Below, piece after piece: positions 41,643-47,337 of a stretch of 64,000 nt of DNA. Position 1 is the first letter of the stretch; each line of letters begins with the position of its first letter. The position numbers and the translations under genes are program-made. The notes beneath the pieces were generated by a model, which was not told where the DNA came from, did not search any database, and was given only the letters and a program-made list of their open reading frames with translations. Source of the stretch: an uncultured Spirochaetota bacterium (GTDB taxonomy: Bacteria; Spirochaetota; Brevinematia; Brevinematales; JAOACQ01); contig CAWIGG010000002.1 of the NCBI GenBank assembly GCA_963835575.1, positions 1,728,001 through 1,792,000 on the forward strand, in the 5' to 3' direction.

Positions 41643-42935
41643 ATGATCTATGATAAAATTCATGAGTGCATGGCGCGGGAAGATCTGGAGCAGCTTCAGA
41701 TTGAAAGGCTCCAGGCGACATTAAACCGGGTCTATCAGAATGTCTCATTCTACAAAAATTCTTTCGATCAGAATAAGATCAATATTGAAAATATCAAATC
41801 CATAAAGGATTTGACCCGGCTTCCCTTTACCACCAGGGACGACCTCCGCCTGAGCTACCCCTATGATATGTTCGCTGTTCCGCTGCGGGACATCGTGAGG
41901 ATCCATTCCACATCCGGGACAACAGGAAAAGCTATTGTGGTCGGTTATACCAGTAATGACATCAGCATCTGGACTTCCCTCATCGCGCGGGTTTTGACCG
42001 CCGTCGAGATAACAGAGCATGATTTTGTCCAGATCGCCTTCAATTACAGCCTCGCGTCCGCCGGACTCGGGTTCCATTACGGCGCCGAAAAGATCGGCGC
42101 TTCCGTCATCCCTTCATCCAGCGAGAATATCCAGCGGCAGATAACGGTTATGAAGGATTATAAAACAACCGCCCTGATCAGTACTCCCGGCTATGCCCTG
42201 CATATCGGCAAAGTGCTGGAGGAGATGAACATTCATCCGGAAGAACTCAACCTCAAGACAGGCCTTTTTGGAGCGGAGCCCTGGAGCGAGAAACTCCGGA
42301 GCCAGATCGAAAAGAGCCTGCATATTAAAGCCTATGATAATTACGGCCTGACGGAACTGATCGGCCCGGGCATCTCATTTGAATGCCCCTATCGGAAAGG
42401 ACTTCATATCAATGAAGACCATTTTATCGCCGAAGTCATCGATCCGAAAACACTCAAGCGCCTGGATTTCGGACAGGAGGGCGAGCTGGTTTTCACAACA
42501 ATTACAAAACAGGGTTTTCCGCTCATCAGGTACAGGACAGGCGACATATCATCGCTATTAGAAGGCAAATGCGAATGCGGAAGGACGCTGGTAAGGATGA
42601 ACCGGCTGGCCGGAAGAACAGACGATATGATCATCATCGACGGCATCAATATTTTCCCGTCGCAGATTGAAGAGGCAATCCTGCAGATTGAAGGAGTGGA
42701 ACCTCATTATCTCATCATACTGGACAGGAAAGACGGCCTTGAAACAATGGAAATCCAGGTCGAGGCGTCCGCTTTCGATGAAATGAGGGAACTCGAGAAG
42801 CTGAAGACAAAACTTATCAACCATCTGGAGGCGACACTCGGCATCATGCCGAAAATAACCCTTGTCGAGCCTAAAACGATCAAGCGCTCGGAAGGAAAGA
42901 AGCTCAAGAGGATCATCGATAAGAGGGAGAAGTAG
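41643..42935 (+). CDS. paaK: Phenylacetate-CoA ligase family protein
   Basis: RIHSTSGTTGK, GAEPW, YGLTE, RYRTGD, GRTDDM. Confidence 0.92.
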   Translation: MIYDKIHECMAREDLEQLQIERLQATLNRVYQNVSFYKNSFDQNKINIENIKSIKDLTRLPFTTRDDLRLSYPYDMFAVPLRDIVRIHSTSGTTGKAIVVGYTSNDISIWTSLIARVLTAVEITEHDFVQIAFNYSLASAGLGFHYGAEKIGASVIPSSSENIQRQITVMKDYKTTALISTPGYALHIGKVLEEMNIHPEELNLKTGLFGAEPWSEKLRSQIEKSLHIKAYDNYGLTELIGPGISFECPYRKGLHINEDHFIAEVIDPKTLKRLDFGQEGELVFTTITKQGFPLIRYRTGDISSLLEGKCECGRTLVRMNRLAGRTDDMIIIDGINIFPSQIEEAILQIEGVEPHYLIILDRKDGLETMEIQVEASAFDEMRELEKLKTKLINHLEATLGIMPKITLVEPKTIKRSEGKKLKRIIDKREK

Positions 42936-42970: not shown

Positions 42971-43326
42971 TTTTAATTTGCCTTTATATATTTTGAACAT
43001 GGCTGGGATTGGTTCAACGCCCGGGTAATTTACCACGAAGACCACGAAGAGGACACTAAGAGCACGAAGATTTGTTGTTGCTTCATACTTCGTTTTTATC
43101 AACCACCCTTTATAGTTTAAAATTCCTTTTTTTTTTACCACAGAGATCACAGAGCTATTAATTGAATAAAAGCATTTGTGTGAGATTCTCTTTATTTGAG
43201 GGCCGCAGAGGGCACTGAGAGATGATGGGTTTAGTTTGCCTTTATATATTTTGAAGGATATCTTGGATTGTGTTAACACCTGTGGGTTAAACACGAAGAC
43301 CACGAAGAGGATACTAAGAACACGAA
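42971..43326. repeat. Diverged direct repeat, period 258 bp
   Basis: TTTGCCTTTATATATTTTGAA at 42977 and 43235; CACGAAGACCACGAAGAGGA at 43034 and 43292. Confidence 0.8.
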
Positions 43327-43349
43327 TCAAGAATGGGACATGGGATAAG

Positions 43350-43427
43350 GTAGGGCGAGTGCTGAGTTCTGCAGGCCGTAGCGACTGAATGTAAGACAAG
43401 GAGCGGAGTGCAAACGCCGTGTTGGAC
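43350..43427 (-). other. Truncated attC-like site (R'' half only)
   Basis: GTCCAAC-ACGGC-GTTTGC.. resembles the first half of the site at 44062-44234. No R' half found. Confidence 0.65.
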
Positions 43428-43473
43428 GATACGCGCGGACCTCTAAATAAAAAAGCGCCACGGATAGCGCTAA

Positions 43474-43743
43474 TTAATAAATTTCATCATGTTTCCCAAT
43501 ATCGACTAGTATTGCTTTTTTATCATCATCAGTAAAATAAAATACTATTCTTAGATCATATTCTACTGTAAAACCCCATAAGTCTTTTAACTTTCCTTGA
43601 AGTTTATGAGTCTTTAATCTATTATCAAAAGGATTATCAATAAAAATTTCAATAATATCCCAAAATTCCTTTTCAATCTGCTTTCTACCAGATATTTGTT
43701 TTTTAAAGGCTCTTTTAAAAGATGAACTGAATGAAATTTCCAT
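43474..43743 (-). CDS. RelE/YafQ-family type II toxin
   Basis: FSSSFKRAFKK, LKTHKLQGKL, DLRIVF, DIGKHDEIY. Confidence 0.9.
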   Translation of the reverse strand: MEISFSSSFKRAFKKQISGRKQIEKEFWDIIEIFIDNPFDNRLKTHKLQGKLKDLWGFTVEYDLRIVFYFTDDDKKAILVDIGKHDEIY

Positions 43744-43746
43744 AAA

Positions 43747-43956
43747 TTATCCAATTGATTTTTTTAAATCATTAATGTTTTTACTGAATTTTAAGTTTTG
43801 TTCTTTTTCTTCTTGCTTTGTTTTTAAATAATTTTTATAAATTTCCTCTCTTCTTTCTTCAATAATTGATTTTTCAATGATAAATTTAATTTCTTCTCTT
43901 TCATCTGTTGGTAAATCCCGAACAATTTCTACAACTTCTTCAAATGTTTTATTCAT
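43747..43956 (-). CDS. Putative antitoxin
   Basis: 69-aa charged ORF directly upstream of the toxin, with its own TTGACT-17-TAAAAT promoter (44011-43983). Confidence 0.8.
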   Translation of the reverse strand: MNKTFEEVVEIVRDLPTDEREEIKFIIEKSIIEERREEIYKNYLKTKQEEKEQNLKFSKNINDLKKSIG

Positions 43957-44061
43957 AAAAGCCTCTTATTTAATATAGTATTATTTTATATATGATAAAT
44001 AATAAAGTCAATCGTTTTTCGCCACGGATGGTGAATGAAATAGTAAAATTCCGCGCGTTTC

Positions 44062-44234
44062 GCCCAATGTCAGGCGTTTGCGAAGCCGCTGAGAGCCGTA
44101 CCAGCTCCGCTGTAGGCGAAGCGGTTTGGTGAGCCCTGCGTTGCGCTTCTTCCGGCCTACTTACGGCAGGGCGAACCCGAGCACCGGAGCCGCCGTTAGC
44201 GGCGAGGAGCAGAGCGCTAAACGCCGGGTTGTAC
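44062..44234 (-). other. attC-like integron recombination site
   Basis: R'' GTACAAC, 5-nt spacer, L'' GTTTAGCG ... L' CGCAAAC, R' ATTGGGC. GC-rich element between AT-rich genes, starting 13 nt after the stop codon. Confidence 0.75.
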
Positions 44235-44246
44235 GCCGTGTCGTTT

Positions 44247-45140
44247 TCATTTAGGTATTAAAGCTATTAATGCAGGAATCTGTTGATATAAACCATTAGC
44301 AATCATACTAATAGTAACTTTTTCTAATATACTATAAATTACTTTTAGACTTTCTGAAATAAAGCTATTTTTTGGTCTTTTTGTTCCTGCTAAAGCTTTT
44401 ATTGTTTCAATTTCTTGTTTTAGTGAATCAATTTCTTCTTGCTTCAATTCTTTAATTTCATTAATTTTACTTTCGAGTTCATTTATAAATTCAATTATTG
44501 ATTTCAAATCATTGTTATTATAAGAATATGTTTGTGTCGATTGATTACTACCTTGTTGCAATTGTGAATAATTCATTGAACCTATAATATTGATAATAGT
44601 ACTTTTTGAAAAATGTTCTGTATCTTCATTAGGAAATTTATTAGCGTGTTCATATTCTTTTATTCCAGGATGAGTAATACTTACCATACCCCCAAGAGTT
44701 TCTCTCTTAACAAGACCTTCACTTTCAAGATATTGAAAAATTAATAGGCCAACATCTTCAGATATTTTTAAATCTTTTGATATATTTCTGAAATCAACAG
44801 AATAAATTTCATCAGCATTTGAAAGATTGTATAACCTTTCAAGAAACAAAAATCGTAATCTTTGATTTTCTTCAATTGTCATAGAACTAATTTCCCCCTT
44901 TAATTTTTTAGAAGGTTCTAATAAAAATAGTCCTTCTTCAGTAAATATAACACTCGATTTATTAACACTTATTATTCCATATTTTTCTAACGACTTTAAG
45001 GCAATTCCTAAATCTTCATTTCTCATTTTTACAGTATGTATTAAATTTGTTATCAAACATCCATTGCCAGTTTGTTCAGTATATTTTGATAATAATTTAA
45101 TTATGGCAGTTTCATTTTGTGTAAATTTGATAATATCCAT
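44247..45140 (-). CDS. Cassette-borne hypothetical protein (winged-HTH-like N-terminus, helical C-terminus)
   Basis: AT-rich 297-aa ORF; L..LEKYGII and YLESEGLV..IT..G resemble two wHTH ends. Confidence 0.75.
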   Translation of the reverse strand: MDIIKFTQNETAIIKLLSKYTEQTGNGCLITNLIHTVKMRNEDLGIALKSLEKYGIISVNKSSVIFTEEGLFLLEPSKKLKGEISSMTIEENQRLRFLFLERLYNLSNADEIYSVDFRNISKDLKISEDVGLLIFQYLESEGLVKRETLGGMVSITHPGIKEYEHANKFPNEDTEHFSKSTIINIIGSMNYSQLQQGSNQSTQTYSYNNNDLKSIIEFINELESKINEIKELKQEEIDSLKQEIETIKALAGTKRPKNSFISESLKVIYSILEKVTISMIANGLYQQIPALIALIPK

Positions 45141-45165
45141 AAAATCCTTTTAATATCATAAAGCT

Positions 45166-45205
45166 GAAAACGGCATGGCGTCCAACTTATTATATATGAA
45201 AAAAG
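45166..45205 (-). other. attI-like site
   Basis: AT-rich CATATATAATAA then GTTGGAC. The following bases are complementary (18/21) to those ending at R'' of the same cassette. Confidence 0.6.
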
Positions 45206-45321
45206 GCATGCTTCCGCATGCCCCAAAGTTTTCCCTGAATCAATAAGCAGGCACTAAACAGCCCGGCTTTCTTCGCGAAATCCTGAGAACTTAATCCCCA
45301 TCCCTTAACACCAACCGGTTC

Positions 45322-45351
45322 AGTGTAGCACATTAACAGGGCGTTTGTCAA
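45322..45351 (-). promoter_or_regulatory. Pc-like sigma70 promoter facing the cassettes
   Basis: TTGACA-18-TACACT with an extended -10 TG. Confidence 0.65.
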
Positions 45352-45546
45352 ATCAAAGAATCTCCGTGTTCTCCGCCCCCCGACGCCTGTCCCGAGCATA
45401 GCCGAGAGATGCCCCTTGTGTTAAAACCCCCGAAACGCACTATTAAAAGCCAGGCATTGATTAGTTTTAGAAGGCAACATAAAGTGTACTAAATCCTCAA
45501 AAATCCACCTAATCCGTGAAAATCTGTATGAAAAATCGGATATAAT

Positions 45547-45575
45547 AAAAAAGGGCAGTCTGACAGACTGCCCTT
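45547..45575 (-). terminator. Rho-independent terminator of the GH12 gene
   Basis: GGGCAGTC..GACTGCCC stem followed by T6 on the minus strand. Confidence 0.85.
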
Positions 45576-45600
45576 CTCTTTAAATTAGCTTATATCAAAC

Positions 45601-47337
45601 TTAGTTCGCTGTCATTGAAAAATTGTTGCAGGTAAATGTCAAAGGAACGCCGCCTGTTCCGCTGATTTCAAATCCGAATTGCATTGCGCCGCATGTGCCG
45701 CCGGCGCTGACCCAGCCCTGGGCCACAATCCAGTTAAGAACGGCTTTGATATCCACGGTGCCCTTGGTTATCTTCATCGGGGCCCAGGATCCGTCGGTCG
45801 AACTGACTGCAACAAGAGAAACCACGTTGTTGCCACCATGGTATACGTTCCAGGTGTATCCTCCGACATTGACGTTGGTCGCGCTCGGTATGGGATTTCC
45901 TGTGGAATCCCAACCGGCGGCTATGGGGCTGACATTACCGTTCTGATACATCCAGATCATGACTTCCGTCGGAACCCATAAATCGTAAGCGACTTCCCAA
46001 TTGCCGGTGGAAGGCACAGTGACATCAAAAGTGCTGGTAAAAGAACTGAGCGAGCTTATTGCCTTACCCACGTTGCTCAGGCCTGAGTTCGGATAGGACT
46101 TGACTCCGCTGGTGTCAGGCTGGGTGGAAACAACGTACCAGTTGCTGTAGGAGTAGGCTGTTAAAGTCTGGGAATTGGTGGCGCTTGTTCCCCAGACATC
46201 ATTATAGATAATGTATGCACCCAAAACGTATTTATCGTAGTTTCCGCTTCCGATAAAAGGCCCTTCGCCCATCGGGCCATTGGGAACGGTTCCGACTAAA
46301 AGCCAGGCCATGTATTGTCCGTTATTCAGTTCGGGATTAAGGTCATAAGCATAGCCCTGATCTTCATACATTTTTTGATTGTACTGGACCAGCATGCCGG
46401 GTGTGTTATAAACAATCTGGGAATTCCATATAGGATAATTAGTACCATAAACAGCAAGCGAACTGCCGGAACTGCTGCTGGCAGCTGTACTGGAAGCAAC
46501 GCTTGAACTGACAGCCACGCTGCTGGCGACCGAGCTCCTGCTGGAACTGGCGGCTATACTGCTGGCTACCGAGCTCCTGCTGGAACTGGCGGCTATACTG
46601 CTGGCTACCGAGCTCCTGCTGGAACTGGCGGCTATACTGCTGGCTACCGAACTTCTGCTGGAACTGGCGGCTATGCTGCTGGCGATCGAACTGATGCTGG
46701 AGACGGCTATCGATGAAACAACAGACGCAGCCGAACTGGTCGTGACGGTCCCGGGTTCAATACCCCAGGAAAGAGTCCCGCTGATGTAAAGAGTCACTTT
46801 GTTCCAATCAACATAAGTTGTTGAAGGATTATAGGAATAGTTCTTCGTATTGTCTATCGTCGACCAATCGCTCTTCCAGATCCTTCCCTGGATTTCCACC
46901 GATGCGCCCGCGGCCAGATTGCCCGCGCCGCTGGTGAATGAGATTTCCTGATACGCTTCTGCGCCCGCATTAGTTGGGCTCATGGCAGTGAAGACGTTCT
47001 GAACGTTGCCGTTTCCTACAGGGATATAATCGCATGCAAAGTTGTAGGAAGTACTACCCTGGTACGCTATATAATAGCGTATTTTTACGGTAGAAAGGGC
47101 TACCGCAGAGGTTCCCGTATTCACAATCGTAATTCTTTCATATATCTGGTTCTGTAGGGTCGCACCGCTCTGGAAGGTCTGAATTTTGACAGGCCCTGTA
47201 GCTTGTGCTTTAGAGACGCCGTTATCCGTGCTTTTCTGGCTATCAACAGCGGTCCGGTCCAGACTGCAGGCCACAAATACGAATAAAGAAACAATCAGAA
47301 ACAGAAAACAAAACCTCATACTTACTAAAATCTTCAT
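45601..47337 (-). CDS. Lipoprotein endoglucanase: CBM3 + Ser-rich linker + CBM5/12-like module + GH12
   Basis: Lipobox FVAC; CBM3 (NTG..V.LS.VKIRYY..YQEISF..GRI..WG.EP); GH12 (NDVWG, VKSYPN, AYDLW, EVMIW, GFEI). Confidence 0.88.
   Translation of the reverse strand: MKILVSMRFCFLFLIVSLFVFVACSLDRTAVDSQKSTDNGVSKAQATGPVKIQTFQSGATLQNQIYERITIVNTGTSAVALSTVKIRYYIAYQGSTSYNFACDYIPVGNGNVQNVFTAMSPTNAGAEAYQEISFTSGAGNLAAGASVEIQGRIWKSDWSTIDNTKNYSYNPSTTYVDWNKVTLYISGTLSWGIEPGTVTTSSAASVVSSIAVSSISSIASSIAASSSRSSVASSIAASSSRSSVASSIAASSSRSSVASSIAASSSRSSVASSVAVSSSVASSTAASSSSGSSLAVYGTNYPIWNSQIVYNTPGMLVQYNQKMYEDQGYAYDLNPELNNGQYMAWLLVGTVPNGPMGEGPFIGSGNYDKYVLGAYIIYNDVWGTSATNSQTLTAYSYSNWYVVSTQPDTSGVKSYPNSGLSNVGKAISSLSSFTSTFDVTVPSTGNWEVAYDLWVPTEVMIWMYQNGNVSPIAAGWDSTGNPIPSATNVNVGGYTWNVYHGGNNVVSLVAVSSTDGSWAPMKITKGTVDIKAVLNWIVAQGWVSAGGTCGAMQFGFEISGTGGVPLTFTCNNFSMTAN
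46520..46685. repeat. 39-bp coding tandem repeat, about 4 copies (SSIAASSSRSSVA linker)
   Basis: Unit CTGCTGGCTACCGAGCTCCTGCTGGAACTGGCGGCTATA. Confidence 0.92.

Follow-up and report, generated by a model that had tools for sequence, protein, structure and literature searches.

Gene cassettes at a minimal attI-like docking site in an uncultured Spirochaetota bacterium: probable loading in trans by recombinases without the IntI insertion

Small cassette clusters without an integrase are usually taken as debris or as near-random off-target insertions. Cury et al. (2016; PMC4889954) give insertion at secondary sites, by an integron located elsewhere, as one origin of such attC clusters lacking an integrase (CALINs), and Loot et al. 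(10.1101/2022.09.11.507474) show secondary-site insertion experimentally, at attG sites unlike attI, and count 1362 of 2961 CALINs that hold only two cassettes. The other close relatives are the co-oriented chromosomal integrons of Treponema (Wu et al., 2013; PMC3607928), with toxin–antitoxin cassettes that carry their own promoters (PMC6557892); rAID-1 of Bacteroidales, in which a XerD-like enzyme is paired with integron-like repeats (Ross et al., 10.1101/471110; PMC12247911); and the simple site of attI1 and the delta-attI sites of class 1 integrons, which have the L and R boxes but no upstream direct repeats and still support a low level of recombination (PMC12901181, where canonical attC sites measure 57–141 bp). 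Here we analyze a two-cassette locus in a 64-kb stretch of DNA (the window; C2:1728001-1792000) from an uncultured Spirochaetota bacterium, within its 4.39-Mb assembly of seven contigs (C1–C7). The cassettes belong to the genome's own long-attC family, stand at a minimal docking site, and were probably inserted there in trans by one of two tyrosine recombinases that lack the IntI insertion.

The docking site and other sites of its kind

The site comprises a 9-bp left arm, TTCATATAT, a 5-bp spacer, AATAA, and a crossover G|TT at 45186, a GWT triplet. Tracing attC tails to cassette heads throughout the genome, and keeping only junctions not preceded by another attC, yielded ten such junctions: two integrase-linked, one heading an orphan array, and seven isolated, the window's among them. 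The arm reads T-(T/G)-C at positions -14 to -12 in all ten and TAT at -8 to -6 in nine. Scored against a leave-one-out matrix of these ten junctions, the 14 bases ahead of the window crossover match the attI left arm at rank 10 of 120,724 GTT contexts, a ranking that counts the training sites too, and at rank 13 when the sister site behind a related leader (copy 3, below) is likewise left out. A matrix from nine attI sites of other genomes, hand-chosen for the same spacer class and mostly the closest enzymes with 15 of 24 sites left out, places the arm at rank 527 (top 0.44%). The matrix also has some predictive reach: ten non-training sites are among the 19 best-scoring, five of them with a cassette-type head (at least 9/11) and four with a complementary tail of at least 14/20; four others are copies of one repeat on C3. 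Because the left arm matches the attI of the candidate enzymes so closely, loading in trans is likely, and summed over the explanation preferred here and plain insertion at a secondary site, which have it in common, it can be held with good confidence.

At full attI sites, the left arm and the cassette head make an inverted pair across a short spacer, as is expected of a tyrosine-recombinase core. Accessory half-site words in the 86 nt upstream number four, three, and four at three full attI sites, versus one at the window site, where it falls inside the terminator loop (random mean 0.45). Judged by these predicted parts, the window site is an attI core without accessory boxes. An earlier reading of the window, made from the sequence alone, had proposed an attI-like site; the likeness is measurable in the arm, but a complete attI is not supported. 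At position -11 of the arm, A stands in nine of ten core-only docking sites, including all seven of those found first, and G in most of the integrase-linked attI sites; given an A:G background of 200:77 in AT-rich contexts, this difference is not treated as significant.

That other integrase-free sites should exist, as the same reading anticipated, is confirmed by the isolated junctions and the orphan array. The genome also holds a second satellite class, to which the window does not belong, consisting of copies of the chromosomal attI together with its promoter (six exact-pattern matches, the home copy included). Such copies lie at C2:1055516, C4:596766, C4:599122, C4:629889, and C6:171667, and some are followed by cassette-type heads.

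Candidate recombinases and arrays elsewhere in the genome

No integrase remnant was detected in the window, where the best tblastn match has an E-value of 0.014, and none of the genome's 23 PF00589 matches falls there. The absence of an integrase from the locus, already noticed earlier, is thus borne out, with no sign of a deleted intI. The search for intI in the rest of the genome returned two candidate recombinases, as the idea of an integrase encoded elsewhere would have it. These are tyrosine recombinases, 47% identical to each other, that head cassette arrays and point toward them, co-oriented. One, of 351 aa, occurs in three near-identical copies (C1, C6, and C7), the C1 copy with an internal stop; the other, of 353 aa, lies at C2:46684-47745. 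Both score 212–214 bits on TIGR02249, below its cut-off of 265, and nothing in the genome scores above that cut-off. The 351-aa enzyme has 24 residues where IntI4 (PDB 2a3v) has 66, and the profile match of the 353-aa enzyme breaks in the same way. Both candidates are thus short of the IntI insertion by about 42 residues, and the standard IntI implied by the sequence-only reading is not supported. The element of the 351-aa enzyme contains further open reading frames (ORFs) that we take, by eye, to resemble a relaxase, a ParA protein, and a split methyltransferase. Of 401 sampled genomes of the phylum, 76 encode a relative of this enzyme at E ≤ 1e-65, with arrays inspected only at the loci retrieved; a search for loci related to the 353-aa enzyme gave a single, uninformative locus.

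Several arrays share cassettes. The copies on C6 and C7 have one common attI followed by different first cassettes, and contig C1 stops right at the crossover G (C1:11157, the contig end; C6:427058; C7:4636), which suggests ongoing shuffling or a strain mixture. At C2:2028353, an array holds cassettes of 395, 428, and 955 bp that are 99.9–100% identical to those in both integrase-linked arrays. This near-identity across arrays speaks most strongly for exchange in trans, although the copies on C1, C6, and C7 may represent strain variants. The large array itself (C2:2028100-2045547) is headed by a full attI-like site that includes accessory boxes; it also has a promoter-like site, but no recombinase gene upstream.

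Cassettes, leader module, and competing explanations

The locus occupies the minus strand and is flanked by a CBM3-domain gene (45601-47337) and a convergent gene for an AMP-binding ligase (41643-42935). Read along that strand, a promoter-like site is followed by a leader of ~117 nt, a hairpin with six Ts, the crossover, a 297-aa ORF, a 173-nt GC-rich element, a toxin–antitoxin pair, and a half element:

45322..45351, minus: predicted sigma-70-type promoter, TTGACA-18-TACACT, with extended -10 TG (promoter scan, 10/12)
45199..45315, minus: predicted leader or small RNA of ~117 nt ending in the terminator (start assumed 7 nt past the -10 box)
45199..45222, minus: intrinsic-terminator-like hairpin and six Ts (hairpin scan; -14.4 kcal/mol)
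45186..45200, minus: minimal docking site without accessory boxes (arm matrix, junction tracing)
44247..45140, minus: cassette 1 ORF, 297 aa, 25% GC (ORF list; C-terminal third resembles PADLOC AbiTi)
44062..44234, minus: attC1, 173 nt, member of the long-attC family, probably decayed (family model, folding)
43983..44011, minus: promoter-like site of cassette 2, TTGACT-17-TAAAAT (10/12)
43747..43956, minus: 69-aa ORF, putative antitoxin by position (ORF list)
43474..43743, minus: 89-aa type II toxin of the RelE/YafQ family (PF15738, TIGR02385)
43454..43471, minus: terminator-like hairpin closing the toxin–antitoxin pair (hairpin scan)
43349..43427, minus: attC2, 5′ half (model positions 1–68 of about 160)

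The ends of cassette 1 are complementary at 17 of 20 positions and those of cassette 2 at 16 of 20. Random AAC sites, compared within 1.1 kb, reached at least 17 in two and at least 16 in nine of 3000 trials, so the mutual complementarity that the sequence-only reading had pointed out is not chance. Iterated searching with a hidden Markov model (HMM) found 59 attC-family matches genome-wide, 41 of them full length; one, whose left core could not be placed, was left out, leaving 40. Members of the family measure 138–220 nt and consist of AAC, 0–2 bases, a stem of ~10 bp, a long interior, 2–5 bases, and GTT. Against a test model built from 35 distinct sites, with the window's own excluded, attC1 matches at E 5.1e-24 and attC2 over positions 1–68 only, at E 2.4e-4, in agreement with the half attC proposed for the array's end; its 3′ half is gone, together with the original right side of the target site.

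The full attC-like hairpin proposed at 44062-44234 fares less evenly: length and family membership stand, but the fold does not. Its right core is ATT, the sole non-GTT core among the 40 full-length sites, and the bottom-strand fold, the very check that the sequence-only reading had named for itself, does not surpass that of shuffled sequences (z -0.56; 57 of 200 folded equally well). The basal stem, folded as bottom-strand DNA, has a pairing probability of 0.17, whereas 27 of 36 distinct family sites folded as DNA reach at least 0.5 (the genome-wide z-scores, from 12 shuffles each, are rough). Low basal-stem probability is found at five of seven sites at isolated loci versus four of 29 in large arrays, by our own grouping. 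What the genome's family model finds at the locus is thus one full-length, decayed attC and one 5′ half rather than two intact sites. With attC1 decayed and attC2 halved, the cassettes look locked in place; both are probably no longer excised. Several cassette tails elsewhere (C2:1660085, C6:171585, C2:1248084, C5:160017, and C3:4347) meet insertion-sequence-like ends, not attC, at or just past the left core.

As for the cargo, residues 180–290 of the cassette 1 protein match PADLOC AbiTi (E 1.3e-10, profile positions 2–112 of 114), which makes it, by library label, a candidate anti-phage gene; one relative stands at 37% identity, and in the ESM Atlas the protein falls only in unnamed clusters. 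In the cassette taken earlier to be toxin–antitoxin, the 89-aa product does match the RelE/YafQ toxin family (PF15738 at E 1e-10; TIGR02385 above its cut-off); its 69-aa partner, with no Pfam, NCBIfam, or PADLOC match, is a putative antitoxin by position only. The pair carries its own promoter-like (10/12) and terminator-like sites and conforms to the layout of a type II cassette.

The promoter proposed upstream of the site is where the sequence-only reading had put it (-35 TTGACA at 45351-45346, -10 TACACT at 45327-45322, 18 nt between). Between it and the crossover, however, sits the predicted terminator, which that reading had overlooked, with a 7-bp stem (GGCATGC/GCATGCC), a 4-nt loop, and six Ts, the last two of which double as the start of the docking arm. 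This module has two more genomic copies, at C2:1415594 (85% identity, copy 2) and C2:248196 (70%, copy 3), and an HMM of the three found no fourth in the genome; the hairpin stem does not vary among the copies, which are most alike in the promoter and the terminator. Beyond this genome, the leader had no Rfam match at gathering score (window stretch and sister loci), was not found by BLAST in 40 related genomes, gave zero exact pattern matches in metagenome or viral contigs, and had no plasmid match; three weak covariance-model matches (25–27 bits) in 60 genomes proved on inspection to be generic terminators. A leader peptide was considered and rejected, its 20-codon frame not being conserved across the three copies. 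Copies 2 and 3 have a 20-codon frame of equal length that starts from TTG near the predicted transcription start, shares 8 of 20 residues, and ends ~45 nt before the terminator; in the window it is frameshifted.

In two of the three leader copies a docking site lies no more than 50 nt away; its 5-nt spacer is identical in both and varies at the other sites. In copy 3, a 781-bp cassette unrelated to those of the window follows 45 nt further on, and the motif TTTCA-NN-TATAATAA-G occurs at exactly two places in the genome, each behind a leader copy (window and copy 3) and ahead of unrelated cassettes. The window copy resembles copy 3 minus ~31 nt that separate two T-runs there; copy 2, to which the window copy is more closely related, retains part of the spacer and then goes straight into a ribosome-binding site and a DUF3800-like gene. 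The simplest history would be that the module, arm included, was duplicated and then loaded independently with different cassettes. The cassette of copy 3 (C2:248393-249173) has the head GAT and the tail ATC, both cores altered in a complementary way. A different arrangement of promoter, short leader, and terminator directly precedes the docking arm at C3:170856 (C3:170800-171000, minus strand), where the cassette encodes an FRG-domain protein with a PADLOC PDC-S15 match, a label from the library only, and has a half attC; homology of that leader with the window's is not supported, the three-copy HMM having found no fourth copy.

Taken together, we picture the following course. The promoter–leader–terminator–arm module would have been duplicated and, at the window, would have lost the ~31 nt between T-run and arm, so that the two came to abut. 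A recombinase would bind the 9-bp left arm and a right arm across the short spacer and cut at G|TT. The toxin–antitoxin cassette may have entered first, its head providing a good right arm, and cassette 1 would then have been added in front. Both attC sites would have decayed later, locking the cassettes, and the front junction could still take a new one. The promoter would mostly yield a short, terminated RNA, leaving cassette 1 with read-through or a weak promoter of its own, and the toxin–antitoxin pair would be transcribed from its own promoter.

Several points weigh against this account. First, with an unselected matrix of 24 attI sites from other genomes, the window arm falls only in the top 4.3%, although this automatically picked set mixes two spacer classes, probably includes some mis-picked sites, and discriminated poorly. 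Second, neither window cassette has a second genomic copy, and the C1, C6, and C7 copies may be strain variants or assembly forks. Third, the argument from shared ancestry draws on two sites and ~15 bases that are partly selected by the enzyme anyway, and copy 2 is without cassette signs, with only 22 nt from terminator to start codon, a layout from which the leader promoter may well read through the terminator. Finally, no empty site was found in two genomes of the same genus, whose synteny breaks right past the ligase gene, and the only DNA run found covers scraps of the locus (7% of words) and shows no joints, with no recombination, circle, or empty site observed.

Among the alternatives, plain attG-like insertion into AT-rich, arm-like DNA behind an unrelated small-RNA gene, the likeness of the two leader-linked sites then being convergence, is unlikely. 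Small CALINs and single attC sites lacking an integrase (SALINs) are proposed to arise in this way (10.1101/2022.09.11.507474; PMC4889954), the loose arm pattern fits 82 places in the genome, and seven of ten core-only sites, in unrelated contexts, have no terminator-like hairpin in the 90 nt upstream. Convergence sits poorly, however, with the spacer common to the leader-linked sites, or with hairpins before three of ten core-only sites versus 11 of 1200 intergenic GTT positions (and none of three full attI sites), an association between terminator and docking site that is suggestive only, two of the three sites being related.

Quite unlikely, in our view, is the working satellite expression platform of the sequence-only reading, in which transcription from the promoter would reach cassette 1 past a terminator that is leaky or under regulation and acts as an attenuator, dampening toxic defence genes or turning them on. 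The conservation of promoter and terminator in copies at 70–85% identity, the direct run of copy 2 into a ribosome-binding site and gene, the frame that copies 2 and 3 have in common, and the cargo that matches defence libraries behind such leaders (AbiTi here, PDC-S15 on C3) can all be read in its favour, but in the window copy that frame is interrupted, the three copies have no anti-terminator pairing in common, and attC1 is decayed and attC2 halved. Considering the terminator-like hairpin predicted between promoter and crossover, the promoter's service as a cassette promoter (Pc) is not supported and the platform role is doubtful.

An origin from a formerly intact integron-like element, either as what is left of it or as a piece transferred out of it, minus its recombinase gene and accessory boxes, is very unlikely, since despite the decay, a region that differs between relatives, and the recognition of intI loss and rearrangement as CALIN routes (PMC4889954; PMC3607928), the 64 kb holds no recombinase fragment, a similarity search found the upstream DNA unlike either integrase-linked attI beyond the arm, and the same leader stands at two other loci without an adjoining recombinase.

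Loading in trans at a minimal dock can also be extended into a more general proposal, which we offer tentatively and consider unlikely in full: insertion-less, integron-like recombinases may serve distributed minimal docks, some of them in a duplicated leader module that would act as an attenuated slot, taking up toxic defence cassettes in trans downstream of a terminator and keeping their expression weak or dependent on a cue, phage infection for example.

The immediate surroundings complete the picture. The interval 45360-45600, read earlier as short repeats and a terminator, does hold a copy of a genome-wide repeat (most of 63 matches in a similarity search fall on 45553-45488); the hairpin and T-run after the CBM3 gene can be read from the letters, but the terminator scan did not list them. 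Short intergenic repeats of two families, with many genomic copies, flank the locus at 45488-45553 and 43030-43330, the second starting where attC2 breaks off. Just upstream of the CBM3 gene, 47544-47637 matches the 3′ half of the attC model (E 1.6e-5), like 3′-half matches elsewhere in the genome. The CBM3 gene product (578 aa) has a long serine-rich repeat linker, and its C-terminal domain presumably resembles a GH12 glycoside hydrolase, a likeness seen by eye that Pfam did not report. A 69-aa ORF across the promoter (45190-45399) was dropped as a helix-turn-helix candidate, a likeness noted by eye, after no Pfam match at E ≤ 1.

Comparison with known systems

The locus shares with canonical integrons the attI core (left box, spacer, G|TT right box). 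It is not itself a canonical integron, because the candidate enzymes lack the IntI insertion, the site lacks accessory boxes, and attC1 departs in size (173 nt versus 57–141 bp) and in fold. A full-text search, with most subscription journals and supplements outside it, turned up no publication in which an insertion-less recombinase serves attI-like satellite sites or in which a terminated leader module precedes them; supplements may bear on rAID-1 motifs and the attG consensus.

The roughly ten isolated sites with a defined left arm in one genome form a natural footprint of what an insertion-less recombinase recognizes, and with two enzymes, a 15-bp site, and intact attC sites in hand, a direct test is possible. 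If such enzymes do move cassettes, gene capture can do without the IntI insertion, by which integron integrases are defined, and software that insists on the insertion would overlook these systems. The window locus itself is a decayed example, and its leader's regulatory role is putative only.

The attI1 simple site offers a precedent for the minimal dock in that L and R boxes suffice for low-rate recombination without the upstream direct repeats; those sites are described there as remnants inside mobile-integron arrays, whereas the one here heads an isolated chromosomal cassette pair. Treponema integrons resemble this genome in a recombinase transcribed toward attI, AAC...GTT cores, toxin–antitoxin cassettes with their own promoters, and integrase-less arrays in some species, and differ in attC sites of 63–132 bp with R and L boxes (138–220 nt here) and in the single attI per integron stated there (PMC3607928), in contrast to the many docking sites of this genome.

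The rAID-1 layout, in the parts of its descriptions consulted, places a XerD-like recombinase upstream of co-oriented, low-GC genes with repeated intergenic motifs, which by layout fits the arrays at C2:46684 and on C6 and C7; membership is defined there by a recombinase over 44% identical to BF9343_RS08045 of B. fragilis and by orphan immunity genes of type VI secretion as cargo. The window locus departs from the layout, with no recombinase directly 5′ of its low-GC genes, and its cargo is labelled as an AbiTi-like gene and a toxin–antitoxin pair; satellite sites do not appear in those parts of the descriptions, according to which the way in which genes are acquired is unresolved.

In its working, the locus is like a small CALIN born at a secondary site. 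With CALINs, SALINs, and attG insertions it shares one or two cassettes with attC-type ends, no nearby integrase, a GWT crossover, an integrase elsewhere, and frequent proximity to a resident promoter. It differs from CALINs and SALINs in that two of the sites sit in copies of one promoter–leader–terminator module and the candidate enzymes are not IntI. Finally, attG sites are described as diverging broadly from attI and as having little in common past GWT and a short right-hand motif; in this genome, by contrast, a 9-bp left arm recurs at a constant spacing in about ten sites and corresponds to the attI of the enzyme itself.

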